Virus record (IMG/VR): IMGVR_UViG_3300032247_000140
Coordinates: 1-37,549 of that record
DNA: 37,549 bases
Strand: one strand, 5' to 3'
DNA from: a virus
Taxonomy: Duplodnaviria > Caudoviricetes
The notes beneath the pieces are model-generated. The model searched no databases. It worked only from the letters and a program-made list of their open reading frames with translations, and had not been told where the DNA came from. This document shows positions 344-16,426 of the stretch, in pieces. The position numbers and the translations under genes were made by a program. The first letter of the stretch is position 1, and every line of letters begins with the position of its first letter.

Positions 344-1002
344 CGGTCTCACAAATCACAACCCAATTACGTCCAACGCAGCAACCTCGCCTGCCTGCGG
401 CTCCGGTTGAGTACGACCGCACATATATAGATTCATTAACAAGTATCTTGCGTCAGTATTTCAACCAACTGGATAACTACACCCAGTCGTCACTAACCAA
501 TACTGGTGGTCGGTTTTCTAGGAATGTATGCGGGTCTTTTCAAGATAGCACTACGCAGACAGCCACGGCTAATACGGCTACGGCAATGATATTTAACACA
601 ACAGATACAACCGCTACAAACAGCATATCTATTGTTTCTAATTCTCAAATTAAAGTTGTTTACCCCGGAATTTATAACCTTCAATTTAGCGCACAGTTTC
701 AAAATACAGACAACGCATCCCATGATGTAAGCATATGGCTACGTCAAAATGGAGTAGATGTGGTAGGTTCTAACGGCATTGTTGGGATGAGTCCGCGTTA
801 TAGCGCAGGCAACTATTTTCATACTATTGCAGGCTGGAACTATTTAGTAAGCATGGCGGCTAGTGATTACCTTCAGTTGTACTGGTCTACAAATAACGCG
901 GCGGTAACTCTTCAAGCCTATGCAGCGGGAGTAACCCCAACGCGCCCAACCACTGCTTCTGTTATAGCCACAATGACGTTTGTGTCTGGACCCCTTACAT
1001 GA
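340..1002 (+). CDS. Tail-associated virion protein with C1q/TNF-like beta-sandwich C-terminus
   Basis: N-terminal LPAAPVEYD plus a helix, then the beta-strand pattern IKVVYPGIYNLQFSAQF...VSMAASDYLQLYW. Coupled to the upstream tail gene. Confidence 0.55.
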   Translation: MTVSQITTQLRPTQQPRLPAAPVEYDRTYIDSLTSILRQYFNQLDNYTQSSLTNTGGRFSRNVCGSFQDSTTQTATANTATAMIFNTTDTTATNSISIVSNSQIKVVYPGIYNLQFSAQFQNTDNASHDVSIWLRQNGVDVVGSNGIVGMSPRYSAGNYFHTIAGWNYLVSMAASDYLQLYWSTNNAAVTLQAYAAGVTPTRPTTASVIATMTFVSGPLT

Positions 1003-1008
1003 TACGAT
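980..1008 (+). promoter_or_regulatory. Possible sigma70 promoter (extended -10) for the cupin/ejection-protein module
   Basis: TTGTGT(980-985)-17 bp-TACGAT(1003-1008) with TG at the extended -10 position. Confidence 0.35.
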
Positions 1009-1029
1009 TGACTTATCTAAAGGACTAGC

Positions 1030-1383
1030 ATGGATATCCCAAACACTAGTGGAAACCCTAACTATGTAAGGCAAAAACCTGATTATGTCGAGTTTGCTGA
1101 AGTAGATGACATTTGGATTCGGGCGTATTCCATACCAAAAGCTAAATCAATTTTGGCCCAACATGTTCATGCGCATGATCATGTGACTTTGGTTTCACGT
1201 GGAACAGTCCAAGCGTGGCAAGACGAAGAAGACATGGGTGAGTTTTCTGCGCCAGCAATCATCACGATACCTGCTGGTAAAAAACATATGTTCATGGCGC
1301 TCACAGATGATGTGAATTTATGCTGCCTGCATAACCTTCGTGGTACGGGACTAGATTTCCCAGAATTGATTAAGGAAGCCTGA
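1030..1383 (+). CDS. Cupin-fold protein
   Basis: Cupin motif 1 QHVHAHDHVTLVSRG and motif 2 IITIPAGKKHMF; SD AAGGA upstream. Confidence 0.8.
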   Translation: MDIPNTSGNPNYVRQKPDYVEFAEVDDIWIRAYSIPKAKSILAQHVHAHDHVTLVSRGTVQAWQDEEDMGEFSAPAIITIPAGKKHMFMALTDDVNLCCLHNLRGTGLDFPELIKEA

Positions 1384-1384
1384 T

Positions 1385-3376
1385 ATGCCAGAAATTTTCT
1401 TTGAAGCGTTTGAACTGGTTGCACCGGAAGCTGCGTCTTCTGTTTTACCTGCTGTTGCCCCCGAGGTTATCGGCACAGCCGCTGGCGCCAATGCGGGAGC
1501 CAATTTCCTTGGCAACATGTCTGCGGTTAACGCAATAGAAAATCCAGCGATAGCCCAAGAGATGACTCAGGCTGGTATTACTGGAGGCGGCGGAGCTGGT
1601 GCAAGCGGTATCAATGAAGAGTTAATTAGGCAACAACAAGCTAAGGCGATGGAGGTTGCTAACTCCGGTATTAATAGAGCAATGACTCCGGCTCAAGAGG
1701 CTTATTTACGTTCTTCTACTGCAAGCGTAGATAAGGTTTTGCCGAATAGTGCTATGCAATATTCCAATCCGTACATAAATCAGCTAAATCCCAATATTAT
1801 GTCGATGGAGACTGCCCCTAGCTCAAACGCACTAAGCAGGGGCATCATGGGAAATCCTTCTGTTAACGTGCCAACGGACTTAGTTGCAAATACAAATATC
1901 CCATCTGTGCCTACAGAAGTGGCAAATGCTAATCTTCCACAGCCGGGTTCTGTACTCGACAACGGCGGCATGACCTCGCCTCCATCTGCATTTGATAGGG
2001 GCTGGATTAAGGCTACGGATTGGATGGACAGCCATAGATTAGAGACCGCTGGTTTAGGTTATTTAGCCGCGTCCAAACTTGGGCTGTTAGATCCAAAGAG
2101 GACAAACTTTAGTAACGAGCCTTACAACGGCCCGCTATCTAGATATCGTATGTCGCCTGACTTTCAGCCGCGTTTTGCTAACCCTACTCAGTTCCAATAT
2201 ACGCCTCGGTATGCAGAGGGCGGCATCATGAGTTACGCCGCAGGCGGTCCAGTTGAGCAAATGTCTAATAACGCGGCTATTGGGGCAAACACTATGTATC
2301 CGATGGCTAACATGACTACGTCTGCATTTGCTACGCCTTACCAAGACCCTAAATCTACTAACATGATGGCATCCATGGCTCCGGCTGGTGGCGGCACAGT
2401 AGATCAAATGTCTGGCGAACCCAACATGCAGGGCACTCGTATGGCTGAAGGTGGCATAGCGCACTACGATTTTGGTGGAGTCATCGGTAATGCCGTCCAG
2501 AATGTTGGTAACGGAATCGGTTCTGCGCTAGGTGGCGTTAGTAATACCGTAGCTGATATTGGCTCTAATATGGGTCATATGTTCAAAGGCGGGGATCAGG
2601 CTGGTTGGGCTAATGTAGAAAAAATGCTAGGTGGCCCACCTACTGCTGATCAGGTGGCTAGAAAATATAGCAATTCAACCTTGTCTCAAAACGGTGTTAA
2701 TCCACAACAATATCAGTATGCGCCCCAATATGCTCAAGGTGGCGTCGCTCATTTCGCTAAAGGTAATCTTGCGGATTCGCTAAATTATTACAACAGCATG
2801 ATCGGCGGTACTGCAGACGAGCAAATGGCTAAGATGCGTACCCCTACTGGTGGACAAGGCGATGCAGGTATTTTTAGAGATACTGATCCAGACACAGCTT
2901 ACTTAAGCGCGCCAGAAGCCGCAGCAGTGCGCATGGCCAAGGTAAATGCTAAAGCTAACATGCAAGGGTTAACCCTACCTAGACCTAAACCCATCGGCAG
3001 AATAAATCTTAAGCCACAGGGAGTTAAACAGGCGGAAGCTAGTGGTTCCTCACTTGATCCTGAGATGGCTGCTTCTGGCGGAATCATGGGTGCTAACCTA
3101 GGCGGCTACGCTGCTGGTGGAAACCCTAGGTTGCTCAAAGGACCGGGGGACGGCATGAGCGACGACATCCCTGCAACTATTGCTAATAGGCAACCTGCTC
3201 GTCTAGCTGATGGCGAGTTCGTAGTTCCAGCCGATGTGGTATCACATTTAGGTAATGGCTCAACCGAAGCAGGCGCTAAGAAACTACATCACATGATGGA
3301 CTCAGTGCGCAAGGCGCGCACTGGCAATTCAAAGCAGGGTAAACAAATCAACCCAAACAAGTTCTTGCCTAAGTAA
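1385..3376 (+). CDS. Internal virion/DNA ejection protein
   Basis: A/G/N/M-rich 663 aa with repeated AxGG motifs. C-terminal GPGDGMSDDIPA...ARLADGEFVVPADVV resembles the GPGTGTSDSIPA..LSNGEFV motif of tape-measure/ejection proteins. Confidence 0.65.
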   Translation: MPEIFFEAFELVAPEAASSVLPAVAPEVIGTAAGANAGANFLGNMSAVNAIENPAIAQEMTQAGITGGGGAGASGINEELIRQQQAKAMEVANSGINRAMTPAQEAYLRSSTASVDKVLPNSAMQYSNPYINQLNPNIMSMETAPSSNALSRGIMGNPSVNVPTDLVANTNIPSVPTEVANANLPQPGSVLDNGGMTSPPSAFDRGWIKATDWMDSHRLETAGLGYLAASKLGLLDPKRTNFSNEPYNGPLSRYRMSPDFQPRFANPTQFQYTPRYAEGGIMSYAAGGPVEQMSNNAAIGANTMYPMANMTTSAFATPYQDPKSTNMMASMAPAGGGTVDQMSGEPNMQGTRMAEGGIAHYDFGGVIGNAVQNVGNGIGSALGGVSNTVADIGSNMGHMFKGGDQAGWANVEKMLGGPPTADQVARKYSNSTLSQNGVNPQQYQYAPQYAQGGVAHFAKGNLADSLNYYNSMIGGTADEQMAKMRTPTGGQGDAGIFRDTDPDTAYLSAPEAAAVRMAKVNAKANMQGLTLPRPKPIGRINLKPQGVKQAEASGSSLDPEMAASGGIMGANLGGYAAGGNPRLLKGPGDGMSDDIPATIANRQPARLADGEFVVPADVVSHLGNGSTEAGAKKLHHMMDSVRKARTGNSKQGKQINPNKFLPK

Positions 3377-3783
3377 TGCCTTTACACTACGTTCCACCTG
3401 TTCAATTACCTACGGTGTGGCCTGTCGCCGCGCCTTTATTGCAGAAAGCTATTGACTTAGATCCGTCTGTAGTAACAATCGAACAAGTTGAGTATGCAGT
3501 TCGTACGGGGCGTACCTTCCTATTAGTCTGGGAAGATCCGGACGAAGGCATCACTGGGGCAGTAACTCTTGAATTTATAGACTACCCGCGCGAGCGAGTG
3601 GCACACGTTGACTTAATGGGTGGTAAAGGCGTTGTCCGTAACCACGTGTTTGAAGAAGCTAAACAATGGATGCGCTCTATGGGTGCAACAAAAGCCCAAT
3701 GTTGGGCAAAGGGAACTCTGGTTCAAATGTACGAGAAGATGGGTATGGAAAATACTCATCAAGTCATGCGGATCAATCTGTAA
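3376..3783 (+). CDS. GNAT-fold acyltransferase-like virion assembly protein
   Basis: 135 aa with the pattern LLVW..GITGAVTLEF..AHVDLMGGKG..EAKQWMRSMGATK...LVQMYEKMG; sits among ejection genes, as T7 gp13/P22 gp14-like genes do. Confidence 0.6.
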   Translation: MPLHYVPPVQLPTVWPVAAPLLQKAIDLDPSVVTIEQVEYAVRTGRTFLLVWEDPDEGITGAVTLEFIDYPRERVAHVDLMGGKGVVRNHVFEEAKQWMRSMGATKAQCWAKGTLVQMYEKMGMENTHQVMRINL

Positions 3784-3797
3784 ATTAGGAGACTCAT

Positions 3798-6263
3798 ATG
3801 GGCGGTGGCGGCGGTGGACAACCCACACAAACAACAAGTACTTCGTATCAAACGAACATACCCGAATACGCACGTCCGTACGTAGAAACAATGCTTGGCG
3901 CGACTCAGCGTCAGTTGTTTCAAGGAACTCCCACAGGCGATGGCGGCTTCAATATAACTGGTTTCCAACCATACAAAGCGTACGGCGGAACGTACGACGA
4001 GCAAGGCAACCAGACTTCTTATGACCCCGGCAAATCAGTAGCTGGGTTCAGTCCTCTACAACAGCAGGCACAACAAGGCGTTGCTGGACTACAAGTGCCC
4101 GGTCAGTTTGATCAAGCTATGCAAGGTACTACCGCTGCAGGTCTTGGCGGCTTTGGGGTGGCTAATCAAGCTAACGTAGGCGGTTTCCAAAATCAAATCG
4201 GTGGGTACATGAACCCATACATGAACCAGATTTTGGCTCCTCAATTAGCGGAGGCTAACCGCAATTACGATATTAGCGGCATGAATCAACAAGCTAAAGC
4301 AACTCAAGCAGGGGCTTTTGGTGGTTCGCGTGAAGCAATCATGGCTGCGGAAAACGAACGCAACCGCAACATGGGGCTTAACCAAATAATTGGTCAAGGG
4401 TACAACCAAGCCTACAACCAAGCACAGCAACAATACAACCAGAACATACAGAACCAACTTGCTGGCTATGGATTGGCTGGACAACAAGCAGGTCAGTTGG
4501 CTGGTATTGCTGGACAAGGGTTGACTGCTCAACAAGGCATCTATGGTCTTCAGAACCAGATGGGCGCACAGCAGCAAGCGCTGGAGCAACAGAAAGTCAA
4601 CCAAGCGATGCAAGACTATGCTAATGCACAGCAGTATCCGCTTATGCAGTTGGGCACTATGTCCAATATGCTGCGTGGCTTGCCAATGCAGGCTCAGACT
4701 ACTAACCAGTACGTTGCGGCTCCTAATCCAATCACTCAGGGTATTGGTGCTGCAGGCGCAGCTGCGTCTTTATATAACGCTACTAAAAATGCTGAAGGCG
4801 GCATGATCAAGTCCATGGCGTCAGGCGGTATTGCATCTGTGCCCCGCTACGATGTGGGCGGCAGAATCCGTGCGCAACTAGAAAACATGGACGCTAAAGA
4901 ACTGCGGCAAGTAGCTGAGACTTCTGAAAGTCCTGAGATGCAGAAGATGGCTAGAGAAATCTTATCTAGAAGCGTACCCGTACAAGCCGCGTCTGGCGGC
5001 ATCATGCATTTTGTTAAAGGTGATGAAGTTGAATCTGATGTAGAACCTCTGCCAAAAGAAGGCGTCATGATGGCGGAAGCAAAAATTCCAGAACCTAAGA
5101 TGGGTGGACAAGCAGATATTCGCGGTATCAATGCTGCGCCTGTGCTTAACAATGTTGGACAAACTAATGCACAAAAAGCTTTTCCGTTGACGTCTGAAGG
5201 CATCATGAGCAACCCTGCTTTTGGCGCTAGTCCAGCTGCGATGGGTTTAGCTAACAAAGCTATTTTGGAAGCTGATAAAACTGAAGAACAACGTAAAGAA
5301 GACTTGAGAGCCAAGTACGGCCCCAACCTTGCCCTGCAAAACTACAGAGCAGAGGAGATGGAGCGCAAAGCAAACTTAGGCGATGAGTTAGCGCGCCAAA
5401 AGAATATGCGTCTTGCTGAATTTTTTGCTACTTGGGGATCAACCCCCGGCCCAACTCTTGTGGCTGGTATGACTGCATTGAAGGCTAAGATTCCTTCATT
5501 CATTGAAGATGAAAAAGAAGCCAGAAAACTAAAACGCGAAGCAGACAAGATCATCTTTGAACTTGATCAAGCTGCGCGCAACGAAGAAATTGGGCTTACA
5601 GATAAAGCCGCTGCGCAAAAGAACGAAGCAACTAAAAATGCTATGGAATTCCAAAAGGTGGTTGAGGCAGCGAAAGAGAAACAACTTGCTGCGGCATCGC
5701 ATGTTAAGAGTTCAGAGCTTACATCTGAGGCCACTAAATTTTCTGCTACTGAACATCGTAGAGCCAGTGAATTAATTGCTGCATCTAATAGAGAAGCTAC
5801 TGCGCAACGCGCAACTGAGGCCAATTCAACTAAGGCTTACCAACAATCTTTAGCTGCACAGGAAGCAGTACGCCGTACAGTAGAAGGCATTGAGAGAGAA
5901 AAGTCTGCACCTAATAGTCAGTATGCGGCGGATATGAAAACCATATCTATGTACGAAGGAGCTGATTTAGATGCGGCGGCTAAGAAACGTCTTGAAGCAG
6001 CCCAAGCACGTGTTGAGGCAAAAAATGAAGAATTCCAAAAACGTATTAATAGCGCTGAGAAAGTAGCAGAGACAAGTACAAACCGCTATCTCGAAATAAA
6101 AGGCGAAGCTCCACCTACTAGTGGCGGCACAAACTCTACTACCACAGAAGAAAGACCATCTTGGGTTCCTAAAGAAGCTAAAAAAGCACAGAATGGTGAT
6201 TGGTATATACCTAATCCAGATAAACCGGGCAAATATCTAAGAGTCAAACCACCTAGTCAATAA
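3798..6263 (+). CDS. DNA ejection/pilot protein
   Basis: SD AGGAG; starts MGGGGGG; Q/G/A-rich N-half with an AGAFGGSR motif, coiled-coil E/K/A-rich C-half, terminal WYIPNPDKPGKY motif. Confidence 0.7.
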   Translation: MGGGGGGQPTQTTSTSYQTNIPEYARPYVETMLGATQRQLFQGTPTGDGGFNITGFQPYKAYGGTYDEQGNQTSYDPGKSVAGFSPLQQQAQQGVAGLQVPGQFDQAMQGTTAAGLGGFGVANQANVGGFQNQIGGYMNPYMNQILAPQLAEANRNYDISGMNQQAKATQAGAFGGSREAIMAAENERNRNMGLNQIIGQGYNQAYNQAQQQYNQNIQNQLAGYGLAGQQAGQLAGIAGQGLTAQQGIYGLQNQMGAQQQALEQQKVNQAMQDYANAQQYPLMQLGTMSNMLRGLPMQAQTTNQYVAAPNPITQGIGAAGAAASLYNATKNAEGGMIKSMASGGIASVPRYDVGGRIRAQLENMDAKELRQVAETSESPEMQKMAREILSRSVPVQAASGGIMHFVKGDEVESDVEPLPKEGVMMAEAKIPEPKMGGQADIRGINAAPVLNNVGQTNAQKAFPLTSEGIMSNPAFGASPAAMGLANKAILEADKTEEQRKEDLRAKYGPNLALQNYRAEEMERKANLGDELARQKNMRLAEFFATWGSTPGPTLVAGMTALKAKIPSFIEDEKEARKLKREADKIIFELDQAARNEEIGLTDKAAAQKNEATKNAMEFQKVVEAAKEKQLAAASHVKSSELTSEATKFSATEHRRASELIAASNREATAQRATEANSTKAYQQSLAAQEAVRRTVEGIEREKSAPNSQYAADMKTISMYEGADLDAAAKKRLEAAQARVEAKNEEFQKRINSAEKVAETSTNRYLEIKGEAPPTSGGTNSTTTEERPSWVPKEAKKAQNGDWYIPNPDKPGKYLRVKPPSQ

Positions 6264-6265
6264 AT

Positions 6266-9200
6266 ATGGCAAAAGAAAAATACATAACGGAAGAGGTCGA
6301 TTACGACCCTTTCGCTAAGAAAGAACCTCAGTATCAAACTGAGGAGGTTGACTTTGACCCCTTTGCCATAAAACAAGAAGAAAAGAAAAAAGCGGCGAAG
6401 GTAGAACCCTATGTACCGCTAAAAACAGAAGAGCGACCACAGGATCAAAGTGTTCTTCGCCAAGTTGCAGACGTTCCTTTAAAGCTAGGGGCTGGACTTG
6501 TCACAGGCGTTCGCATGGTTGCCGATGCTATGGGCGCGGATAGCGGCATATCTAAATCTTTACGTGGTGTAGAAGACTATATAGCTGATCTATATAGCGC
6601 ACAGTCTAAACAAGATAGCAAAGAGATTGCGCGCATCATGAAAGATGCGGAAGATAAAGGTGTAGGCGAACAAGTTTTAGCTGGTGTTAAAGCGTTTTCT
6701 GTAGCGCCTGTTGATATATTAGTAAATGCTCTTGGTACTAGTGCGCCTGCTATTGCTGGTGCTTTGCTTACTACTTTGGCTGCCGCGCCTGCTGCTGTTG
6801 CTACTGCCGCTGGTCTTGGTATCGGCGCGATTATGGGCGCTGGAACTATTAAAGGTTCTGTTTATGATGCCACTAAACAAGTTTTGTCTGAGAAAACAAA
6901 ACTATCTCCACAAGAAATTGAAGCTCGCGCAGTTAAAGCACAAGAGTACGGTGGTGAAAACTTAGATAGTATTTTGATTGGCGCTGGGTTAGGCGCGTTT
7001 GGTGCATCAAGTGGTATTGAGCCTGTAATTGCGCGGCAGTTAGCTAAGAGTATTACTGCTAGAGCCGTAGCTACCGATGCTGAGAAGGCCGCAGCACAAG
7101 CTGCTACAGCCGCCGCAGTTAAAGCATCTACCCGTGAGGCTACAGAAAAAGCCGCTGAACGCGGCGTGTATAAAAACGCTGCAATTACAGGTGTAAAAGA
7201 ATTTGCTGGTGAAGGGCTTGAAGGCGGACAAGAACAGATGGCGCAAAACTATGCGCAAAGACGCGAAGGTTTTGATGTACCGGTATATCAAGGTGTAGTT
7301 AGCCAAGCTACTATGGAAGGTCTTGCTGGCTTGGGCATGGGTTCAGTGGGTGGATACAAAGAAGCTTCTTCTGCTCAACGCGAATTAATGCGGGAGAAGG
7401 TTGAAAAAGAAGGCCCAGATAAAACAACCAAGAACGTGATGACCACGACTGGGTTGACTGGCGAGAAGATAACTCCTAACGCTACTGCTGATGATATAAA
7501 TACTTTGGTGCCAGCCACTAACAAAGCTGGACAGTCTTTAACCGATGCTGCGCCCGAGACTGTAAACGCAAAACAACAAGCTGATGATACGGCTACTAAA
7601 GAAGCTGAAAAAGCTAAGATATCTCTTGATGAAGCCACTACAAAAGCTAACGAACTTATTGCAAAGGTTGACGGTGGTGGAAAATCAAAACAAAGCGAAA
7701 TCCGTCAAACTGCCGCAGGTCTCGGAGTCAAAATCCCGTTTGGTACGTCAAACGCGGATGCGCTCGAAATTATCCGTCAACACATCCAAGGAGCGCAGGG
7801 TGCTACAGGATCTCAACAACAGTCAACTGGAGCAGGCGCTAACGTGGTTACACAGCCCAGTGCAAACGCCCCCGCCGGAGGAACTACAGCAGCTCAACCA
7901 AGTGGAGTGGCTGCTACTAACGCAGCTGCTGCACAACCTGCTGGAGGAAAAGCTGCACAGCCCGCTTCACTAACTAAGACTGCCGCACAACAAGACGAAG
8001 ATTTATTAAAAGGTTTGTTTGGCGATGATGGTTTGCCTTCTGTTGGTAGCGCACGTCGTACCAAAGCGCAGATGGAAATGGATGCCAAGTTAGATCAACT
8101 AGGCAGAAAATACGGCTTAAATCGTAGCGCTGACGAAACACCTAAAGATTTTGGCGCGCGCATTAAAGAAGCTATTGACTTTGAGAAGATGCGTGAAGGA
8201 CAGCCACTGTCCGCCTTGTCTGACCAAGACATCGCTAAACAGACTTTGCGTGAAGACGCATCGTACATACCACCCGACCTGCAGATTGAGGCATACGAAA
8301 AGGCGCGCCAAAAACACAATGAGTCTATAGAGCGAGACCCAGAGACAGGCGAGTTGATGGATGAAGAACTCCCTGCCTATAAAGAGCTTTCCCCCGATGA
8401 CCGACGTGTCTATTTCCAAGAAGGACTAAAGCGCCCCGGTGCTGGTACAGAACAAGAGCATGCTGCCGCAGTCAGAAAACTAGCGGACTATCGTAGCGGT
8501 GTAAAAGAAGAAGCCGAACCGTACCAAATGAAAAACAAAGCTGGTGAACTTTTGTTCAATCCAGATGGCACTCCTATGATGGCGCAAACTACTTTGCCCG
8601 GAGAAAGCCAAGCAAGAGATTCATACAATCGTGAACGTGATGCATTTGGGCGCAAGACAGGTTTATCTTATGCTTTCCCAGCTTGGAATACTTTGTCTCA
8701 AGAAAGCAAACGTGCATATATAGCAATCAATAAAACAGACACTGCACTAGAGCAGGACATGGCATTTCGCGCAGTAAAAAGACAACTACAAGCGGAGAAG
8801 GTTGAGACTGCCGCAGGTGAAAAAACCGAAGCAGAACAATCTAGAGTAACAAATCGTATTCGGGACATCATAGAAAAATCTAGGCTTAGAAAAGAAGATC
8901 GCCTACCTGATCACGTATTAGAGTCTTTATTTAAAGGCGACATCAAAGCCGTACTGAAATACATCAGTGAAGAAGGTAACGGTGTAAAACTTAAAAAAGC
9001 AGCTGACTTCTTTATGTCAGGCACTCGTCGCACTAAGAGCGGCACTATTCTGCCTGTCTTTAAAAAGGCAACCATAAAGATACGCGACTCTATTTCTATG
9101 GGCGTGTTTCGTAGTTTGGCTAGTACGCTTGCGGATATTGACGGTTTAAAAGTTAACGTCGTGTTTGACGAGAACATGATCTACGATCAGCTTGCGCGAT

Positions 9201-12200
9201 ACGATGCTAAAACTAATACGATATATGTTGGCCCTAACGGATTGAATGAAGCAACTATCTTGCATGAGTTAGTGCATGCCGCTACTGTAAAGATAATTCA
9301 TCAGTTCTATACCGATGCATCTAAGCTAACTCCACGTGCTAGACAGGCTGTAGAGCAACTTATTGCTATCGCAGCTGAAGCTAAGAAACGTCTTGGCAGT
9401 AGATTTCCTAATGCGTTTGATAACTTGTATGAGTTTGTGTCGTACTCTCAAACCGACATAGATTTCCAAGAAGCGTTGCACAGAGAACAAGTTGGTAAGT
9501 TAGCAACTACTACTAATAAAACAGAAGAGCAATCTCAAGAACTACAGCTTCAACGCGAATCTACTAAAGGCGCAGCGCTATACGATGGATTAGTTGATAC
9601 CTTATGGAATGCTTACACAGGTACGCTTGCCTATCTATATAAAGTATTTACGCCTAACGCTAAGAATACAAAGATAGTATTGCCGACTGAGAAAACTGGC
9701 TTTGCTCGTAAGCGCACTGCGGCAGAGATTGAAGAAGGTATTGCTTTAGAAAAAGCAGCGCGGGGCGAGAGGCGGCAGACTAGAGAAATGTCAGAGGCTG
9801 AAAAGGAAGCGTTAGCGCCTGAGAAGCTATTTGATAATCCCGATGAGGAAATGGATGAAGCAAGTATTCCTCCAGCTCCACAAGATTTAGTAACGCAATA
9901 TGGTGTAAGCAACTTACAAAGAGCCATACTACGTGAGCCCGGCTACAAAGGCAACTTGCTGCTAGAGGCAGCGGAGATGTTTCAGTTAATTCTTGCTGCA
10001 CCAGAAGGCGGTATTGCACAGTTGGCGGGTAAACAAGGCATCGGCTCAGAACTTGCCGCTACTAAACCAACACCTACTCCGTCTACGCCTGCTGAAAAGA
10101 AAACCCGCGAAGGCGGTATCTACGACAAAGACCTACGTCAGAGCTACAAGCTATCTAAGTTAGAGAAGTTTGGTAGTACGGCTAAAGCGTTCTTAAAACG
10201 TATTACGACTGCGCAAGGTTGGAGAACCACTGCTAAGGAATACATTGACCGTACTTACGCTGTGCGTTATCGTGAGCGCCAGCTTAGTATGGCTGGTTTG
10301 ATTGAACGCGATCCAACTAAAGCGTTTAATAATGTTGCTGAACTGATGACGCTTGCATCAGGCACAGCGCGTAACTATCTAATTCAGTATTTAGATAAAC
10401 CAATGATGGATCTGCGTAGTTCTATTGCAGAGCTAGCTAAGTTAACTAAGAAAAACATTGAGGATGATATTCTTCCAACACTACACATGTTGGGTGAGGC
10501 ATTTGGTGAGCCAGAGAAACGCCACATGAAGTGGGTCTTGAGCGTGCCACTTAGTACAACTAAGAACCTAATGCACAACGGTAAAGCCATCAGTGCGGCG
10601 CAACGTCGTATTGATTTAGTGGGTGATCCTCGCACCGGTAAAGCTGGTATTGTTCAAAAAATAAAGTTAACTCCAGCGCAACAAAAACAAGTGCGCGCTG
10701 AATTAGAAGCATTAGCTAAAAACCATGCTGACGCTTTAGGTGACAGCCCGCGCATTAAGAACGACAAGATACGTGAACGTGCATTAACTAAACGCCAAAA
10801 GAAAAATCAGCTTGGCGTGATGGATATCAACGAGGACAGCGATACCTACAACGTGTTAGGTATTAACAAGCAAGAAGTTGATTTGCGTATGGAGCAGTTC
10901 AATGCTATGAGCGCAGAAGAGAAAGCTCTCATAAACAAGATCATGGATAACATCCGCACAATAACTGCGGAAACTGCTGAACTTAATAAGATCGGTAACT
11001 ACTGGTCATATCCAGTGTCTAACATCGTTGGTATATACGACTACCAGAACTACATGCCGTTCAAAGGTTTGGCTAAACACTCTGTCGTAGATGAGTTAAT
11101 TGACCCAGAAAGCGGTCGCACTAAGACAAGTCGCTTGCTTCAACAAGAAGAACATGCAGCACATGGACGTTTCAGTGTCTCTGACAACCCAATACTGCAG
11201 ACTATGAGCGATGCCTATCGTGCCGCTGGTCGTGCTGGACGTCGTGACTTTATGCAGGCAATCTTGAATGCGGTCAAGCCAGACAAAAAGAAAAATCCAA
11301 ATGGCACGGGAATCATTGATGGCGAAGTTGTAGAGCGCATAGAGTTCCCAGAGCGCGAAACAAAAGATCTATCTAAGTACCAAGGTAAGTCGTACATATT
11401 TGTATACGGGCCTGACGGCAGTCTTAGTATCGTTAAGATTAACGAAAAAGAAATTCTTGAGGCATTGCGCTATCAGTACCAAGAGAATGGTTTTATGCTT
11501 GACATGGCTAGCAAACTAACTAATACAGTTGGTTCGTTCCATACTAGATGGAACATTAACTTTGCGGCTAAAAACTTTGTTAGTGACACACTGCAAAATG
11601 CATGGAAGATCGGTACTGGAATAACAGGCCCGTTAAGCTCGCTCAAGTATCTAGTCGATACAGCTGGTACAACTATAGTTAAAAATGGTCTTGGCAAAGC
11701 CATGCAGGTCGCTATTCTTTATGAAAAGGGTGACGAAGTAAGTAATCGCATGCTGCGAGACTTGATTGAAAAAGACGAGTTTGTCCGTGATATGGTTGAG
11801 CTGTTAAAGATTGGCGGCAAGACTGCTTACCTACAGAGCTACTCGCTTAAATCTAGTTTGCAACAGTTAGAAAAAGAATTGACTACAAATGGCGTAGCCA
11901 AGACTCTAGAAGCAGCTGAAAAGATTGCCGATGTCTGGGGCGCTATGTTTGAATTTACTAGCCGAACCGCTGCATACCAACTGTTCAAACGTGAGTATCT
12001 GAAAAAAGAAATTGAAAAGGGTACGTCCAACGACAGAAATGGCAGGGAGATGTCTCCAGCAGAACAAGCCGCTGCTGTACGTGCCGCTGCGGATACAAAA
12101 AATTTGACCAACTTTGAAGTGGTTGGCTCAAAGTCTAAATATATGAGTGCCCTCTACATGTTTTATAGAGCATCGGCATCTAGTGCCTTGAGTACTATGG

Positions 12201-13378
12201 AAGGCACAGCGCCAGCATTTAGAAGGATGGCGTGGGCTGAGTCTCAGCTACCCGCTAATATACGCAACAACCAAGTAGCTCTAGATAACTGGAGAAAAGA
12301 ATACGCTGTACTACAACGTAATTCGCAGATCATGATCGGTGGTTTGATTGGATTTGGCTACTGTCTGTATCTCATGTCCATGATGCTGGCTCCTGATGAT
12401 GAATGGAAGCGCAACACAACTAAGTATGACAACATGGAGCAGTGGACTCGCTATGCGCGTTTCCATCTACCAGAATCGGTGTTGGGTGCTTTGGGTCTGC
12501 GTAAAGATACAGTGCTGCAAATACCATGGGGCTTCGGTCTAGGTTCGTTTGCATCTATGGGCGCACAGATAGCTGGCATGGTTCATGGGCAGACATCCTT
12601 TAAAGATGGCGCAGCAAATATTGTTGCTGGTTCACTAGCTGATGCATTCCTGCCGTTGCCAATATCTAAGATACCTTTCTCTGAGAAGCCGGGTCTAGCT
12701 GGGTTTGACACGATCATGCCGTCTATCCTGCGCCCTTATTTCGAGTATCTAGTTAATACTGACGGTGTGGGTCGCGGCATTAATAGCACCATGAATCGAC
12801 GTCTAGGCGATGCCTACACAGGTAGCGATCGTGTTCCAGAAGTTTATAAAGACGTAGCTGACTATGCGTTCCGCATATCAAATGGTGAATGGAGTTGGTC
12901 ACCCAACACACTGTATTTCTTTGCCAACAGCTATATAGATGGTATTGCCCGTTTTGGTGAGCTTGGATACTCATTAACTAAAGTTGATACTGGGGCAAAG
13001 AACTTTAATCCCAAGACTGATCTGCCATTGTTTGGTTCATTCTTTGGTGCTAAAGCCAACGTCGATGCAAAAGAATACGGGAACATGGAGTCACGTATTA
13101 AAGAACTAGACAAGCAGCTTTACACACTGGAACAAAAGTATCCAGAGCGCGTGCCTAGATTTGAGAGCCAGTATCCGTTTGCCCGTCCTGTCATAGAGAT
13201 GTATAAACAACGACAAGGCGAACTCAACAAGCTGCGCCACGAGGCGACTGTGATCCGTACAGATAGATACCTATCTCCTAAAGATAAAGAGAGCCGCCTT
13301 AAGATTGTTACGTTTGAAGAGAACTTAATCAAACATGCAATGGTGCAAGACTTTAAAGCTTATGGCATGAAGAACTAG
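6266..13378 (+). CDS. Giant internal virion polyvalent protein (zincin-like metallopeptidase domain; LPD38-like C-terminus)
   Basis: 2370 aa; ARYDAKTNTIYV...ATILHELVHAAT...YEFVS (HExxH plus downstream Glu); hydrophobic G/A-rich segments; C-terminal LQIPWGFGLG...PYFEYLVNTD resembles LPD38. Confidence 0.7.
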   Translation: MAKEKYITEEVDYDPFAKKEPQYQTEEVDFDPFAIKQEEKKKAAKVEPYVPLKTEERPQDQSVLRQVADVPLKLGAGLVTGVRMVADAMGADSGISKSLRGVEDYIADLYSAQSKQDSKEIARIMKDAEDKGVGEQVLAGVKAFSVAPVDILVNALGTSAPAIAGALLTTLAAAPAAVATAAGLGIGAIMGAGTIKGSVYDATKQVLSEKTKLSPQEIEARAVKAQEYGGENLDSILIGAGLGAFGASSGIEPVIARQLAKSITARAVATDAEKAAAQAATAAAVKASTREATEKAAERGVYKNAAITGVKEFAGEGLEGGQEQMAQNYAQRREGFDVPVYQGVVSQATMEGLAGLGMGSVGGYKEASSAQRELMREKVEKEGPDKTTKNVMTTTGLTGEKITPNATADDINTLVPATNKAGQSLTDAAPETVNAKQQADDTATKEAEKAKISLDEATTKANELIAKVDGGGKSKQSEIRQTAAGLGVKIPFGTSNADALEIIRQHIQGAQGATGSQQQSTGAGANVVTQPSANAPAGGTTAAQPSGVAATNAAAAQPAGGKAAQPASLTKTAAQQDEDLLKGLFGDDGLPSVGSARRTKAQMEMDAKLDQLGRKYGLNRSADETPKDFGARIKEAIDFEKMREGQPLSALSDQDIAKQTLREDASYIPPDLQIEAYEKARQKHNESIERDPETGELMDEELPAYKELSPDDRRVYFQEGLKRPGAGTEQEHAAAVRKLADYRSGVKEEAEPYQMKNKAGELLFNPDGTPMMAQTTLPGESQARDSYNRERDAFGRKTGLSYAFPAWNTLSQESKRAYIAINKTDTALEQDMAFRAVKRQLQAEKVETAAGEKTEAEQSRVTNRIRDIIEKSRLRKEDRLPDHVLESLFKGDIKAVLKYISEEGNGVKLKKAADFFMSGTRRTKSGTILPVFKKATIKIRDSISMGVFRSLASTLADIDGLKVNVVFDENMIYDQLARYDAKTNTIYVGPNGLNEATILHELVHAATVKIIHQFYTDASKLTPRARQAVEQLIAIAAEAKKRLGSRFPNAFDNLYEFVSYSQTDIDFQEALHREQVGKLATTTNKTEEQSQELQLQRESTKGAALYDGLVDTLWNAYTGTLAYLYKVFTPNAKNTKIVLPTEKTGFARKRTAAEIEEGIALEKAARGERRQTREMSEAEKEALAPEKLFDNPDEEMDEASIPPAPQDLVTQYGVSNLQRAILREPGYKGNLLLEAAEMFQLILAAPEGGIAQLAGKQGIGSELAATKPTPTPSTPAEKKTREGGIYDKDLRQSYKLSKLEKFGSTAKAFLKRITTAQGWRTTAKEYIDRTYAVRYRERQLSMAGLIERDPTKAFNNVAELMTLASGTARNYLIQYLDKPMMDLRSSIAELAKLTKKNIEDDILPTLHMLGEAFGEPEKRHMKWVLSVPLSTTKNLMHNGKAISAAQRRIDLVGDPRTGKAGIVQKIKLTPAQQKQVRAELEALAKNHADALGDSPRIKNDKIRERALTKRQKKNQLGVMDINEDSDTYNVLGINKQEVDLRMEQFNAMSAEEKALINKIMDNIRTITAETAELNKIGNYWSYPVSNIVGIYDYQNYMPFKGLAKHSVVDELIDPESGRTKTSRLLQQEEHAAHGRFSVSDNPILQTMSDAYRAAGRAGRRDFMQAILNAVKPDKKKNPNGTGIIDGEVVERIEFPERETKDLSKYQGKSYIFVYGPDGSLSIVKINEKEILEALRYQYQENGFMLDMASKLTNTVGSFHTRWNINFAAKNFVSDTLQNAWKIGTGITGPLSSLKYLVDTAGTTIVKNGLGKAMQVAILYEKGDEVSNRMLRDLIEKDEFVRDMVELLKIGGKTAYLQSYSLKSSLQQLEKELTTNGVAKTLEAAEKIADVWGAMFEFTSRTAAYQLFKREYLKKEIEKGTSNDRNGREMSPAEQAAAVRAAADTKNLTNFEVVGSKSKYMSALYMFYRASASSALSTMEGTAPAFRRMAWAESQLPANIRNNQVALDNWRKEYAVLQRNSQIMIGGLIGFGYCLYLMSMMLAPDDEWKRNTTKYDNMEQWTRYARFHLPESVLGALGLRKDTVLQIPWGFGLGSFASMGAQIAGMVHGQTSFKDGAANIVAGSLADAFLPLPISKIPFSEKPGLAGFDTIMPSILRPYFEYLVNTDGVGRGINSTMNRRLGDAYTGSDRVPEVYKDVADYAFRISNGEWSWSPNTLYFFANSYIDGIARFGELGYSLTKVDTGAKNFNPKTDLPLFGSFFGAKANVDAKEYGNMESRIKELDKQLYTLEQKYPERVPRFESQYPFARPVIEMYKQRQGELNKLRHEATVIRTDRYLSPKDKESRLKIVTFEENLIKHAMVQDFKAYGMKN
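6278..6367 (+). repeat. Tandem peptide repeat Y(I/Q)TEEVD(Y/F)DPFA at the N-terminus of the giant protein
   Basis: KYITEEVDYDPFA and QYQTEEVDFDPFA in the translation. Confidence 0.85.
7800..7973 (+). CDS. Putative nested out-of-frame gene, 57 aa, amphipathic helical protein
   Basis: SD AAGGAG at 7788-7793, GTG at 7800, TAA at 7971-7973: MLQDLNNSQLEQALTWLHSPVQTPPPEELQQLNQVEWLLLTQLLHNLLEEKLHSPLH. It coincides with the low-complexity linker of the 2370-aa protein. Confidence 0.55.
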   Translation: MLQDLNNSQLEQALTWLHSPVQTPPPEELQQLNQVEWLLLTQLLHNLLEEKLHSPLH

Positions 13379-13581
13379 CCAACGCGCCAGACCCGTACAC
13401 CTACGTGTGAGTCTTTGACTGTAACGTATGACTTAACACGGACTTTGGCGCGTTTGCTTCCGCTGTCAACTGCATAGATCATCTCTGCAAAGCGCAGAGT
13501 AGGGATGAAGAAGCTGTCACCTATCTCCATCCCTTGAAACGGAAAGATCCACTCAGGTTCTTTAAGTTCACTCGGTATCAT
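13375..13581 (-). CDS. Small conserved phage protein, probably DNA-binding (FPF..MEIGDSFFIP...GVRVWR family)
   Basis: Probable ATG at 13581 overlaps the end of the primase gene; motifs WIFPFQGMEIGDSFFIP and VGVRVWRV. Confidence 0.7.
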   Translation of the reverse strand: MIPSELKEPEWIFPFQGMEIGDSFFIPTLRFAEMIYAVDSGSKRAKVRVKSYVTVKDSHVGVRVWRVG

Positions 13582-16426
13582 GGAAGAAACCATCAGGCAA
13601 CTGGGTCTTGAACCAATACAGATTAGTTGGGTCAATATGGATGGCGCTCTTCCAACCTGTAGTCAGTCGTCCCTTCTTGTCTTCAATCAACGAACCGTTC
13701 TCCCGCATCTCAAACTCAAATTCACGGCTGCTAATCTGGCACTCTGCCAAATACTTCTTGAGTGCAGTCTTAGATACCTGCAGTAGATTCTCATCGCTAG
13801 ACATACGTGCAACGATCTGGTTCGTAGGTTCTTTGGTGACCTTACCCTCCTTAATAACCAGCAGGCTGTTGGTGTTCTTGTGCAGGAAGTCAGACAGTAC
13901 AGATGGATAGTCAGTGCGGTTGACTTTAACTACCTTATCACGGATAGTGATCATCTCGCGCACAGTCTCGTGGTAAACACGAGATACATCTAAATTGATG
14001 ATGTTGGCGTTGTGCGCCATCGTGCCAGACATACAAGCCGCAGACATTAAGTTTTGGTAGAAACGATACGTGCCGTCATCGCCAAAGTCTTTAGTGAATT
14101 TCTCATCCCACATCAGCAGGTTGTCTTCTATATAACTGTCCCCGAGACGCAAGCCTTCTTGGATGATCATCGGGCCGACGTGTCCATAGTTATAGTTAAA
14201 TGGGTTGAAGATGCGTTTACCCAGCGCTGCGCCACCTTCAGCTGCTAGCATAGGCGGTTTGTGGATTAAGAATTCAATCAAACGTGCGGCTTCACCGTCA
14301 GGCGTAGCCTTGATCAACTCAAACTTATTGTAGGCTGACTGGTTAGTAGTCATGATGCCGACCATAGAAGCGGACATCTCATGCTCACGTTCTGCATTAA
14401 TTGATCCTTGCATCCTAATCTTGGCTTTACCATGAGAGATCTTATGCACTAACTGAGACAGAATCTTGGAGTCCTTGTTTGAGATTTCGTCAACGCCAAG
14501 CGGGATGTTGTGCAGTCCAAGGAAGCGACCGACCATACCGTTGTCTGTTGCTTCAAACACGCTAAGGTCTTTCGGATTACCCCACATACTTAACGCTGCA
14601 TACATAGCACCTGTCTTGGCACTACCAGACTTACCCAACAAACAGACAGTCACACCAGAAGTGGTCGTATATGTCATGTAAGGCGACGCCATACCGCAAA
14701 GCATGGTGAACGCGTGCATCTCAAACCCCGGATTGTTTAGATGATCTGCTGACTCACGCCACTTCTCGTATGTGCCACGTGGTATCAAGTGCTTGGTCAG
14801 TCCGCGCACAAAGGGTGAAGCTGGGGCATCAATGATTTCTCCGTTGTATAAAACTTCGCGTTTACCAATAACAAAGCTACGAGTAGGCCAAGCAATCTCG
14901 TCAGCAGGCTCTTCAGTCCAGCCCATCTGCATGCGCATCATCTCAGCCTTGTCGTTGAGTTGCATGTACTGACCCCATTTAATTACATAGTTCATAAGGT
15001 GCGGTAGTTTCTCAGTTGAAGCAAACACGCCATTTGATGACATGAGTGCCTTAAAGTTTTCTTGGGCGTACACCTGTTTCATGGGTACGAGGATTTCACG
15101 GATAGGGTCTTTGGGTAACTCTAGGCGCATCAACAGGCATTCACCATCATGCTTACTAAACATCCTGCGCACAGGAAAGAATTCATGTGGCAATACAAGG
15201 ATGGGGTCTTGCGGTACAGCTTCGCCTTTCTTGTTGTATTTGTTCGGTGGCTGGTAATAGATACCGCCATTCGCACCTTTTAAGAATGGGAATAAATAGT
15301 CGGGGAAAGCAGAAACTGTTTGGGTATCCGCCTCTTGCCGAACTGATTCCGCTTTATCTGCCTTGGGTGCGGGTTTGAATGACTTTCCCAAGACGATTGG
15401 ACTAGTGATCTTTCCTTTGTGCTGGCATCCCTCGCATCGCTTGGGATAGTTTTCATTGAACCATTCACAGGTTCTTGGAGCAGGCGCGCGATTTGCGACT
15501 TTTTCTGTTTCTTCATATGTGTATCTTGGATCAGGATTAGATAGTTCATGGATGGCAGTTGCACCATCATCACAAAACTTAGCGATTGATATGACTGCAT
15601 GCCACATCGGTTCTTCTAAATTAGCTGCGTTAATCAGCGAATACTTAACCTGTTCGCATCCTCCTTCATCATCTATACTTTTCTGCGCCAAGACTTCAAA
15701 TGATTTACCGAAGTTATCCAGCTTGAGCATTTGCTTGGTATCTTCATCCAAACCCTTAGACACTGATGCCAACACATCGTCAACCTGTTTAGGTGCGGGT
15801 GCTTGCACTTCGCCAAAGAACTCTTTCATCTCGTCCCAGTTGTAGACTGGGAACTCATCAACCATGAAAAAGGTTTCGCGCTTTGGTTCAAACTTGTGGT
15901 TGAACGTCTCAGGGCAACGCAAGATACGGGCAGCGTCTGCTGATACTGCTGGGTCAATATTCACGGTGCTGAGACACAACGCTTTGAACTTCTCTGCGTA
16001 TGGCTTCCACTCATCGCGTGGAATGTTTCTATCAAAAGGCCAGTAGGCATGGACGCCACCGCCTGAGTCAGTTACCACGGGTTCTGGTAAACCTGTCTCG
16101 TCTAAAAGTTTTTGCAGTGCTTCAAGCGCTAAGTCTTTGTCTGCATACTTTCCTGTTGGGTTATCTTCGTCATCAAACAATGCGCCTACATCAAAATCAA
16201 CAAAGAATGAGCGTTGGTAAATACAGTCTTTTGCTTGACGGCTATGTCCCTCGAATGTACCCATCGCTATGAACAAGTCATAGCCGTTGTTTTTTAGGTT
16301 TTCAATTGTGTCGATTGCCTCGTCGAGCGTCTCTGCAAAGTGATGCCGCAGTTTTTTGTTCTTAACTGAAGCGACGCAGTAGACACCCTGACTTGGTAAT
16401 GCTTTCTCGTAGAATTGTTTTAACAT
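13568..16426 (-). CDS. Primase-helicase (AEP/RepB-like primase, Cys cluster, DUF927-like region, P-loop helicase)
   Basis: FFVDFD and VVTDSGGGVHAYW...ARILRCPETFN (AEP motifs); TCEWF..RCEGC; Walker A GKSGSAKT; Walker B LGVDEI. Confidence 0.85.
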   Translation of the reverse strand: MLKQFYEKALPSQGVYCVASVKNKKLRHHFAETLDEAIDTIENLKNNGYDLFIAMGTFEGHSRQAKDCIYQRSFFVDFDVGALFDDEDNPTGKYADKDLALEALQKLLDETGLPEPVVTDSGGGVHAYWPFDRNIPRDEWKPYAEKFKALCLSTVNIDPAVSADAARILRCPETFNHKFEPKRETFFMVDEFPVYNWDEMKEFFGEVQAPAPKQVDDVLASVSKGLDEDTKQMLKLDNFGKSFEVLAQKSIDDEGGCEQVKYSLINAANLEEPMWHAVISIAKFCDDGATAIHELSNPDPRYTYEETEKVANRAPAPRTCEWFNENYPKRCEGCQHKGKITSPIVLGKSFKPAPKADKAESVRQEADTQTVSAFPDYLFPFLKGANGGIYYQPPNKYNKKGEAVPQDPILVLPHEFFPVRRMFSKHDGECLLMRLELPKDPIREILVPMKQVYAQENFKALMSSNGVFASTEKLPHLMNYVIKWGQYMQLNDKAEMMRMQMGWTEEPADEIAWPTRSFVIGKREVLYNGEIIDAPASPFVRGLTKHLIPRGTYEKWRESADHLNNPGFEMHAFTMLCGMASPYMTYTTTSGVTVCLLGKSGSAKTGAMYAALSMWGNPKDLSVFEATDNGMVGRFLGLHNIPLGVDEISNKDSKILSQLVHKISHGKAKIRMQGSINAEREHEMSASMVGIMTTNQSAYNKFELIKATPDGEAARLIEFLIHKPPMLAAEGGAALGKRIFNPFNYNYGHVGPMIIQEGLRLGDSYIEDNLLMWDEKFTKDFGDDGTYRFYQNLMSAACMSGTMAHNANIINLDVSRVYHETVREMITIRDKVVKVNRTDYPSVLSDFLHKNTNSLLVIKEGKVTKEPTNQIVARMSSDENLLQVSKTALKKYLAECQISSREFEFEMRENGSLIEDKKGRLTTGWKSAIHIDPTNLYWFKTQLPDGFFHDTE

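Follow-up and report, generated by a model that had tools for sequence, protein, structure and literature searches.

A small gene probably nested in the +1 frame of a giant LPD38-protein gene of uncultured phages

The virus record IMGVR_UViG_3300032247_000140 (Duplodnaviria; Caudoviricetes), analysed here over its complete length of 37,549 bases (hereafter the window), carries a gene for a giant protein of 2370 residues. Within this gene, a 57-codon open reading frame (ORF) is found on the same strand and in the +1 frame, at a place where the giant protein reads as a low-complexity linker. Does this short ORF encode a protein of its own, or is it a by-product of the composition of the linker? 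Based on the comparison with relatives, we consider it very probable that positions 7800-7973 are a real, separately translated protein-coding gene. The elements concerned are the following.

7788..7793, + strand: Shine-Dalgarno sequence of the nested gene, AAGGAG, 6 nucleotides (nt) before the GTG; it overlies the giant-frame codons for Q-G-A
7800..7802, + strand: start codon of the nested gene, GTG; aligned with the ATG (79/86) or GTG (6/86) of relatives
7800..7973, + strand: nested gene in the +1 frame of the giant gene, with 57 codons and a TAA stop, for a small acidic protein that is predicted to be helical
7787..7975, + strand: giant-frame linker, residues 508-570, QGAQGATGSQQQ...KAAQPASL; low-complexity reading

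Selection on the nested frame and its translation signals

The nested ORF lies wholly within the longer ORF of the same strand and in another frame, which is the architecture of an embedded gene. The spacer between AAGGAG and the GTG at 7800 is CGCAGG, the TAA stop occupies 7971-7973, and the predicted product comprises 57 residues (VLQDLNNSQLEQALTWLHSPVQTPPPEELQQLNQVEWLLLTQLLHNLLEEKLHSPLH). A first-pass annotation, made from the sequence of the window alone, had reported this ORF with the same start, spacer and frame, and its interval 7788..7973 runs from the Shine-Dalgarno sequence to the stop. It had also placed the ORF on an A/Q/G/P/T-rich stretch of the giant frame, with which it does coincide: the overlap covers residues 512-570 of the giant protein, a G/A/T/P/Q/S-rich stretch that ends just before KTAAQQDEDLL.

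With regard to the selection acting on the two frames, the nucleotide entropies among 86 sequences are 0.992, 0.657 and 1.202 at nested codon positions 1, 2 and 3, and the third position of the giant frame is therefore its least variable one. In a control block that belongs to the giant frame only (residues 575-775, alignable in 19 of the 86), the entropies at host positions 1, 2 and 3 are 0.922, 0.762 and 1.487; in the overlap region, the same 19 sequences exhibit 1.103, 0.954 and 0.563. A gene-wide scan of 23 full giant genes (2064 codon columns, 2035 windows of 30 codons) found 66 windows where variability is lower at host position 3 than at position 1, and all of these lie within residues 479-585. 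Pairwise amino acid identity reaches 55.1% in the nested frame versus 34.0% in the giant frame, and is higher in the nested frame in 3654 of 3655 pairs. An OLGenie-style count was made on 67 ungapped genes, using 117 pairs with a divergence of at most 0.20; sites synonymous in both frames (SS) were too few for use. The dNN/dNS ratio of 0.203 indicates purifying selection on the nested frame, whereas the dNN/dSN ratio of 1.118 indicates no detectable constraint on the giant frame in the overlap.

Population variants were collected from contigs at least 85% alike to the window, originating from 4 other runs in 2 studies, and comprise 25 sites in 7500-8300. All six variants inside 7800-7973 are silent in the nested frame and alter the giant protein (T>I, V>A, S>G, A>T, A>V and A>T). 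In contrast, 17 of the 19 variants outside this interval are silent in the giant frame, and 17 of the 19 are non-silent in the +1 frame. According to our own arithmetic, the hypergeometric probability of this contrast is about 1.6e-4. As judged from these sequence comparisons, the nested frame, and not the linker of the giant gene, is the reading under purifying selection at 7800-7973.

The embedded gene exhibits conserved initiation signals of its own, at which translation is predicted to begin. Among 86 unique genes, on which all counts of starts, Shine-Dalgarno cores, lengths, stops and charges are based, the start is ATG in 79, GTG in 6 and TTG in one, and in 85 the ATG or GTG falls in a single alignment column. 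GTG is also used by the two sequences closest to the window, L244 (93% identity) and L245 (82%). A GGAG/GAGG core at positions -16..-4 is present in 81 of the 86 genes, compared with 4.6% of 67,782 control windows, and in 76 of 80 metagenome loci. The encoded length is 56-59 residues in 84 genes, and the stop codon is TAA in 44, TAG in 36 and TGA in 6. An in-frame stop is found at most 10 codons upstream in 18 of the 86 genes and at most 30 codons upstream in 65, in several cases directly before the ATG. The first-pass annotation had supposed the nested frame to be the constrained one, which is borne out, and the check it proposed shows the Shine-Dalgarno sequence, start and stop to be retained in relatives.

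The open +1 frame of the window extends farther upstream, to an ATG at 7584 (129 residues; 135 codons from stop to stop), over the 72 codons that precede the GTG (7584-7799). Homology and variant patterns support the GTG at 7800 as the probable start rather than the ATG at 7584 or at 7758, since the +1 reading is altered by the variants at 7741 and 7762. The extension itself looks like a by-product of composition, because the variants at 7609, 7642, 7741 and 7762 are all non-silent in this frame.

The predicted product, its distribution and the giant genes around it

The small protein would have a mass of about 6.6 kDa and be acidic, with a net charge averaging -4.9 (range -10 to 0) across the 86 members. 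Cys is absent from the window peptide and present in 3 of the 86 members. AlphaFold2 gave a predicted local distance difference test (pLDDT) score of 75.8 with 11 sequences, and of 87.4 with 103 sequences, the latter with a predicted template modelling (pTM) score of 0.68. In the model, a helix (residues 7-18) is followed by a Pro-rich turn that includes a short helix, and then by a long helix (residues 34-53). Almost complete conservation is seen at E50 and at a set of mainly hydrophobic positions (L5, A13, L17, L29, L32, W37, L44 and L47).

The small protein appears to match no known family or fold above noise in Pfam, PHROGs, PDB, BFVD and ESM Atlas. The best Pfam hit for 11 members was FGAR-AT_N (E 0.0022, in 3 of the 11), below any cut-off; the best E values were 0.014 in PHROGs and 0.29 in a sequence search of PDB, and ESM Atlas returned no usable match. 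Foldseek searches with the model gave best E values of 1.3 in BFVD and 2.5 in PDB, and a wide fold comparison (VIA) reached a best Z of 4.6. Kinship with homeodomain, Myb or FF (Z 3.6-4.6) was considered and rejected, the three-helix layout being common and indicating no relationship.

An alignment of 11 peptide sequences served as query for scans of viral contigs, metagenome contigs and one-per-species prokaryote genomes. In the viral contigs, 221 of 271 pattern stretches were confirmed by tblastn; the metagenome contigs yielded 216 confirmed stretches out of 539, and the prokaryote genomes none out of 9. Local hidden Markov model (HMM) searches of 161 loci gave 120 hits, all on the strand of the giant gene. 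With one exception (119/120), they are nested in a long ORF (at least 500 residues) in the -1 relative frame, and none is inside a long ORF of the other frame. The same relative frame is seen in 80 of 80 metagenome loci. Two divergent subfamilies comprise 36 loci, of which 34 are nested and 2 free-standing. In a set gathered via giant-protein motifs alone, the small gene is present in the +1 frame at 54 of 78 loci; the 24 loci without it include contig-end cuts, distant proteins that share just the HExxH region described below, and the true orthologs L198 and L195. At L001 and L002, where the giant protein is about 61% identical, an open +1 frame occupies the homologous place, begins with AAGGAA, 6 nt and ATG, and has the identical EKLHSPLH-stop end, while the giant-frame residues differ. 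The peptide is also found inside far more distant giant genes.

When the family profile was run against 1.84 billion representatives of 50%-identity clusters, 160 proteins were retrieved with E<=1e-3, 42 of them with E<=1e-10. All are small (29-266 residues), nearly all are aligned at the C-terminal end, and those looked up are unnamed or called 'hypothetical protein' and mostly come from short contigs. The window ORF is missing from a 15-billion-protein collection in all three of its start versions, in agreement with the earlier remark that gene callers would overlook it. One database gene call, P0188 (266 residues, from a 1238-nt contig), has a giant-frame-like G/A/T/P sequence that runs into the nested-frame C-terminal half (…LESLNQLEWFLLRRMLDSLLQEKENNPVQ), which may be a contig indel or a natural fusion. 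Contigs 95-99% alike to the window occur in a freshwater-labelled run (X5). From these contig sequences, the family is widespread in uncultured, largely freshwater-labelled material. Among GenBank/INPHARED phages, no match was obtained by blastn of 7400-8400, by tblastn of the window 57-residue and L081 peptides at E up to 10, or by tblastn of the giant protein.

The giant gene and its relevant features are listed below.

6266..13378, + strand: giant gene, 2370 residues, with C-terminal LPD38 and an HExxH motif, as assigned from the ORF, Pfam and homologs
9263..9277, + strand: HELVH (H1000-E1001-x-x-H1004 of the giant protein), a zincin-like motif about 490 residues downstream of the nested gene
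12422..12994, + strand: LPD38 domain of the giant protein, PF18857, residues 2053-2243
13568..16426, - strand: primase/helicase-like gene (phrog_25314, E 4e-70), convergent after the giant gene; synteny marker

The sole Pfam match of the giant protein is PF18857 (LPD38), with 65.2 bits versus a gathering cut-off of 27, and its PHROGs match is phrog_2206. PF18857 is present in every one of 88 homologs (1719-2561 residues), among which the linker region is poorly conserved and variable in length. H1000, E1001 and H1004 are invariant in 40 homologs; no Pfam peptidase family matched the HELVH region at E up to 1, and the enzyme class attributed to this region is putative. The remaining genes of the window are those of replication (DNA polymerase, helicases, primase/helicase, exonuclease and nucleotide kinase). 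By DNA polymerase (about 34% identity), the nearest cultured phages are Rhizobium phage RHph_TM3_14A, the Pseudomonas phages KPP25 and Rollin, and Aeromonas phage phiA008.

By analogy, the giant protein is probably a polyvalent protein of the virion or ejection type. Its packaging into the virion and its delivery are inferred because of phi24B gp47, described in the relevant passages as a virion or ejection protein, and of the KPP25 giant gene, annotated as 'virion structural protein' in its record. According to a preprint passage, efficient infection requires PTXU04_00025, an LPD38 protein of 2198 residues (10.1101/2023.09.18.558157). Like the giant protein of the window, these large polyvalent or ejection proteins (phi24B gp47, PTXU04_00025 and KPP25 gp01) carry LPD38 at the C-terminus. 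Unlike the window, the KPP25 gp01 giant gene has no copy of the small gene, no family member being detected in it by a local HMM search. The passages that deal with these three proteins contain no mention of a nested gene. At the N-terminus of the giant protein (window 6287-6367, + strand, residues 8-34), the two copies of a tandem acidic motif, TEEVDYDPFA ... TEEVDFDPFA, are spaced by 17 residues and may serve as a short peptide for docking or targeting.

The giant proteins around the small gene are very diverse. A block of the window type follows the gene in 19 of the 86, and the modules downstream differ wholly between giants, e.g. LLDQAKDIVITAQRASPSLIQRGL... in L079 and TLYHGTNTQYDTLDPEKSGGMVFFGEDL... 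in L113. An HExxH-type motif is located downstream of the small gene in 72 of the 86. In two further loci, the giant gene itself is interrupted. In L238 (ORFs 2-679 and 633-4943), the upstream ORF ends 47 nt past the stop of the small gene, and the 1436-residue downstream ORF continues in the frame of the small gene. In L174 (3285-3992 and neighbours), four pieces that differ in frame make up the giant gene. Either genuine splitting or frameshifts introduced during assembly may account for these loci.

The free-standing copies are informative with regard to linkage. L325, a 58.9-kb record rated 100% complete, holds one family copy, which is free-standing. A giant gene of about 2021 residues (HExxH at residue 881) is followed after an 18-nt gap by the small gene with its own AGGAGG, and then by a convergent primase/helicase (3355-6168, - strand). 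The latter is phrog_25314, the same family as in the window at 13568-16426 (- strand). The junction of the structural and replication modules thus appears to be conserved, since phrog_25314 follows the giant block in both records. The full L325 giant ORF matches the zincin region of the window by BLASTP (E 4.7e-8), and at the C-terminus it aligns with the ends of giant-protein PHROGs, e.g. phrog_10089 at 4248-4627 of 4647 (E 1e-60). The giant-protein profile against this upstream ORF was not significant by hhalign (probability 0.3%), and a 987-residue piece of it reached a best E of 2.1 in pairwise BLASTP. In L324, the small gene comes after a 423-residue ORF whose PHROGs match (E 4e-8) is phrog_4287, 'DNA ejection protein'. 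Even where overlap does not force linkage, the small gene is thus still found next to a giant or ejection-protein gene, albeit in two cases (n=2).

Weighing of the explanations

Several observations weigh against a separately translated gene that works with the giant protein. Taken alone, the nested ORF is no more than chance (P about 0.26): with the giant residues and codon usage fixed, a +1 frame without stops over the 57 codons is retained by 25.5% of 20,000 synonymous resamplings. No RNA run is among the 16 runs listed as holding the sequence. The peptide-guided scans can recover intact copies only; the host-motif set and the gene-wide scan are free of this bias. Loci and pairs are phylogenetically related, and their counts are not independent events. 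Some of the variant contigs, from four runs and two studies in all, have a depth under 5. True orthologs of the giant gene without the small gene exist, namely L195 and the full-length L198, whose N-terminus is homologous. No family member was found in the whole records of RHph_TM3_14A, KPP25, Rollin and phiA008. The small gene is thus not indispensable to every such giant protein, because some orthologs and four cultured phages have no copy. Finally, the case for a joint role stands on two stand-alone loci and on a linkage that the overlap itself forces. At the site of the nested gene, L195 exhibits a (GGGTGNDTL)n-type repeat linker (residues about 230-290 of the giant ortholog), in which no family member was detected.

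The simplest alternative is an ORF left open by chance. The A/G/P/T/Q/S codons of the linker lack a second-position T, which leaves the +1 frame little scope for stops; in 99% of 500 whole-gene synonymous shuffles, this frame contains an ORF of 57 codons or more. The nested ORF is therefore unremarkable as a single-sequence observation, and its significance rests only on the comparison with relatives. What chance leaves unexplained, however, is the conserved column of start and Shine-Dalgarno sequence, the fixed length, the gap in identity between the frames, the low dNN/dNS, the unique dip at the third position, the six nested-silent variants and the free-standing copies, and we regard it as having almost no probability. 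Conservation of a nucleic-acid element (RNA structure, or a regulatory, packaging or recombination signal) in place of a peptide is just as hard to maintain. The variability is codon-patterned (position 3 > 1 > 2 in the nested frame), the tolerated changes are synonymous, such as CTG/TTG and CCA/CCG, and the peptide alignment gives a confident fold. Moreover, the RNA fold around the start (z = -0.15) and the sites in a promoter and terminator scan of the same region are at background. Programmed ribosomal frameshifting from the giant ORF would cut the giant protein short and give it a different C-terminus, no separate gene being involved. It could draw on the P0188 gene call, which passes from a giant-like into the nested frame, and on the 72 open codons upstream of the GTG. 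Nevertheless, the in-frame stops that closely precede most of the 86 genes, the conserved ATG and Shine-Dalgarno sequence, the non-silent variants at 7741 and 7762 and the free-standing copies all speak against it, and P0188 comes from a single contig. We consider frameshifting very improbable.

If the nested gene is real, as we think very probable, ribosomes would begin at the internal AAGGAG, 6-nt spacer and GTG on the late mRNA of the giant gene. The small acidic helical protein would then be made late and together with the giant protein, because its start lies on the giant-gene transcript. It may act with the giant protein, as a partner in assembly or packaging or as a keeper of its HExxH domain. 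We give an even chance to such a joint role, and far less to any one of these specific roles. The small chaperone, inhibitor or assembly factor of the giant protein that the first-pass annotation had proposed would likewise be supported by linkage only. Alternatively, the gene could be real and its product act apart from the giant protein, e.g. as a small acidic inhibitor or decoy of a host protein, either made late or brought along into the next cell, its position being a historical accident of a tolerant linker or a gene junction. The acidity of the family would suit this, as would the existence of giant-gene orthologs that manage without the small gene. In addition, the flanking giants are very diverse and the small protein is constant, which suggests that its partner could be something else. 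Yet the two free-standing copies still adjoin a giant or ejection gene on the same strand, and no defence or counter-defence family was matched in Pfam and PHROGs, the sole libraries searched for one. Independent action is in our opinion quite conceivable, if short of probable.

As for the origin, the small gene may be the older one, a dedicated partner of giant HExxH/LPD38 ejection proteins that was engulfed when flanking genes fused, the linker being a neutral overprint. We advance this scenario tentatively and hold it to be rather unlikely. The ordered small protein and the neutral, disorder-like giant reading would fit it, as would the free-standing copies beside giant genes and the splits in L174 and L238, with the reservation that these splits are possible assembly errors. 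According to the passage concerned (PMC6139136), a newly arisen out-of-frame reading is as a rule the disordered one, which also fits engulfment. The alternative is birth in a tolerant linker, i.e. classical overprinting, with which the orthologs without the gene and the codon usage agree. The codon-usage similarity to the rest of the giant gene is 0.614 for the giant frame versus 0.580 for the nested frame, which is the higher one in 30 of 85 cases (p 0.002, the sequences being non-independent). Codon usage thus weakly opposes the argument from order and disorder. The term overprinted gene in the first-pass annotation holds for a real overlapping gene, whereas the direction that it implies may be the reverse.

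Comparison with known systems

The nested gene would represent a family of small proteins, widely conserved and predicted to be well folded, that is invisible to annotation because it lies inside giant phage genes. It would add an unstudied component to the giant ejection and polyvalent proteins, whose biology is newly opening, and provide an unusually clean natural case of one frame under selection and the other drifting. What reads as a 'low-complexity linker' in a giant phage protein may be the shadow cast by another gene, and the knock-down or mutation of such giant genes would also strike the nested gene. If the small gene was indeed engulfed, giant polyvalent genes may routinely conceal conserved small partner genes at module junctions.

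Gene-within-gene coding is textbook knowledge for tiny phages and spanins; in phiX174, E is overprinted in D and B in A. The arrangement itself is thus known, from phiX174 as from Rz1 in Rz, and it is the small protein family that is undescribed in the libraries searched. In the literature searched, supplements not being covered, no description was found of a gene that lies within one for an LPD38 or giant ejection protein. Overprinting is also described, in the passages concerned, for tombusvirus p19 in p22 (PMC11044054), and for small phages and viruses in reviews (PMC8227390, PMC3494269). Like the window, phiX174 and p19/p22 exhibit one stretch in two frames, one ordered and constrained and the other tolerant. 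These are, however, tiny genomes under size pressure, whereas the nested gene of the window occupies the linker of a giant gene in a contig of at least 37.5 kb from a double-stranded DNA phage.

The closest parallel in architecture is Rz1 in Rz, where, as far as the passages concerned describe it, a small gene with its own ribosome-binding site is likewise contained entirely, in the +1 frame, in a longer gene of the same strand. For the lambda Rz/Rz1 spanins, separated architectures exist too, and both products work together (passages of PMC6139136 and PMC5295617). An o-spanin is defined there by an N-terminal lipoprotein signal with a lipobox Cys (PMC6139136). The window peptide, unlike Rz1, has no lipobox, Cys or signal peptide, and its host is a 2370-residue LPD38/HExxH protein, whereas Rz is an i-spanin of roughly 150 residues in a lysis cassette; an o-spanin (Rz1-like) identity was therefore rejected. 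In Rz/Rz1, both readings are functional; in the window, in contrast, the giant reading of the overlap appears to evolve neutrally.

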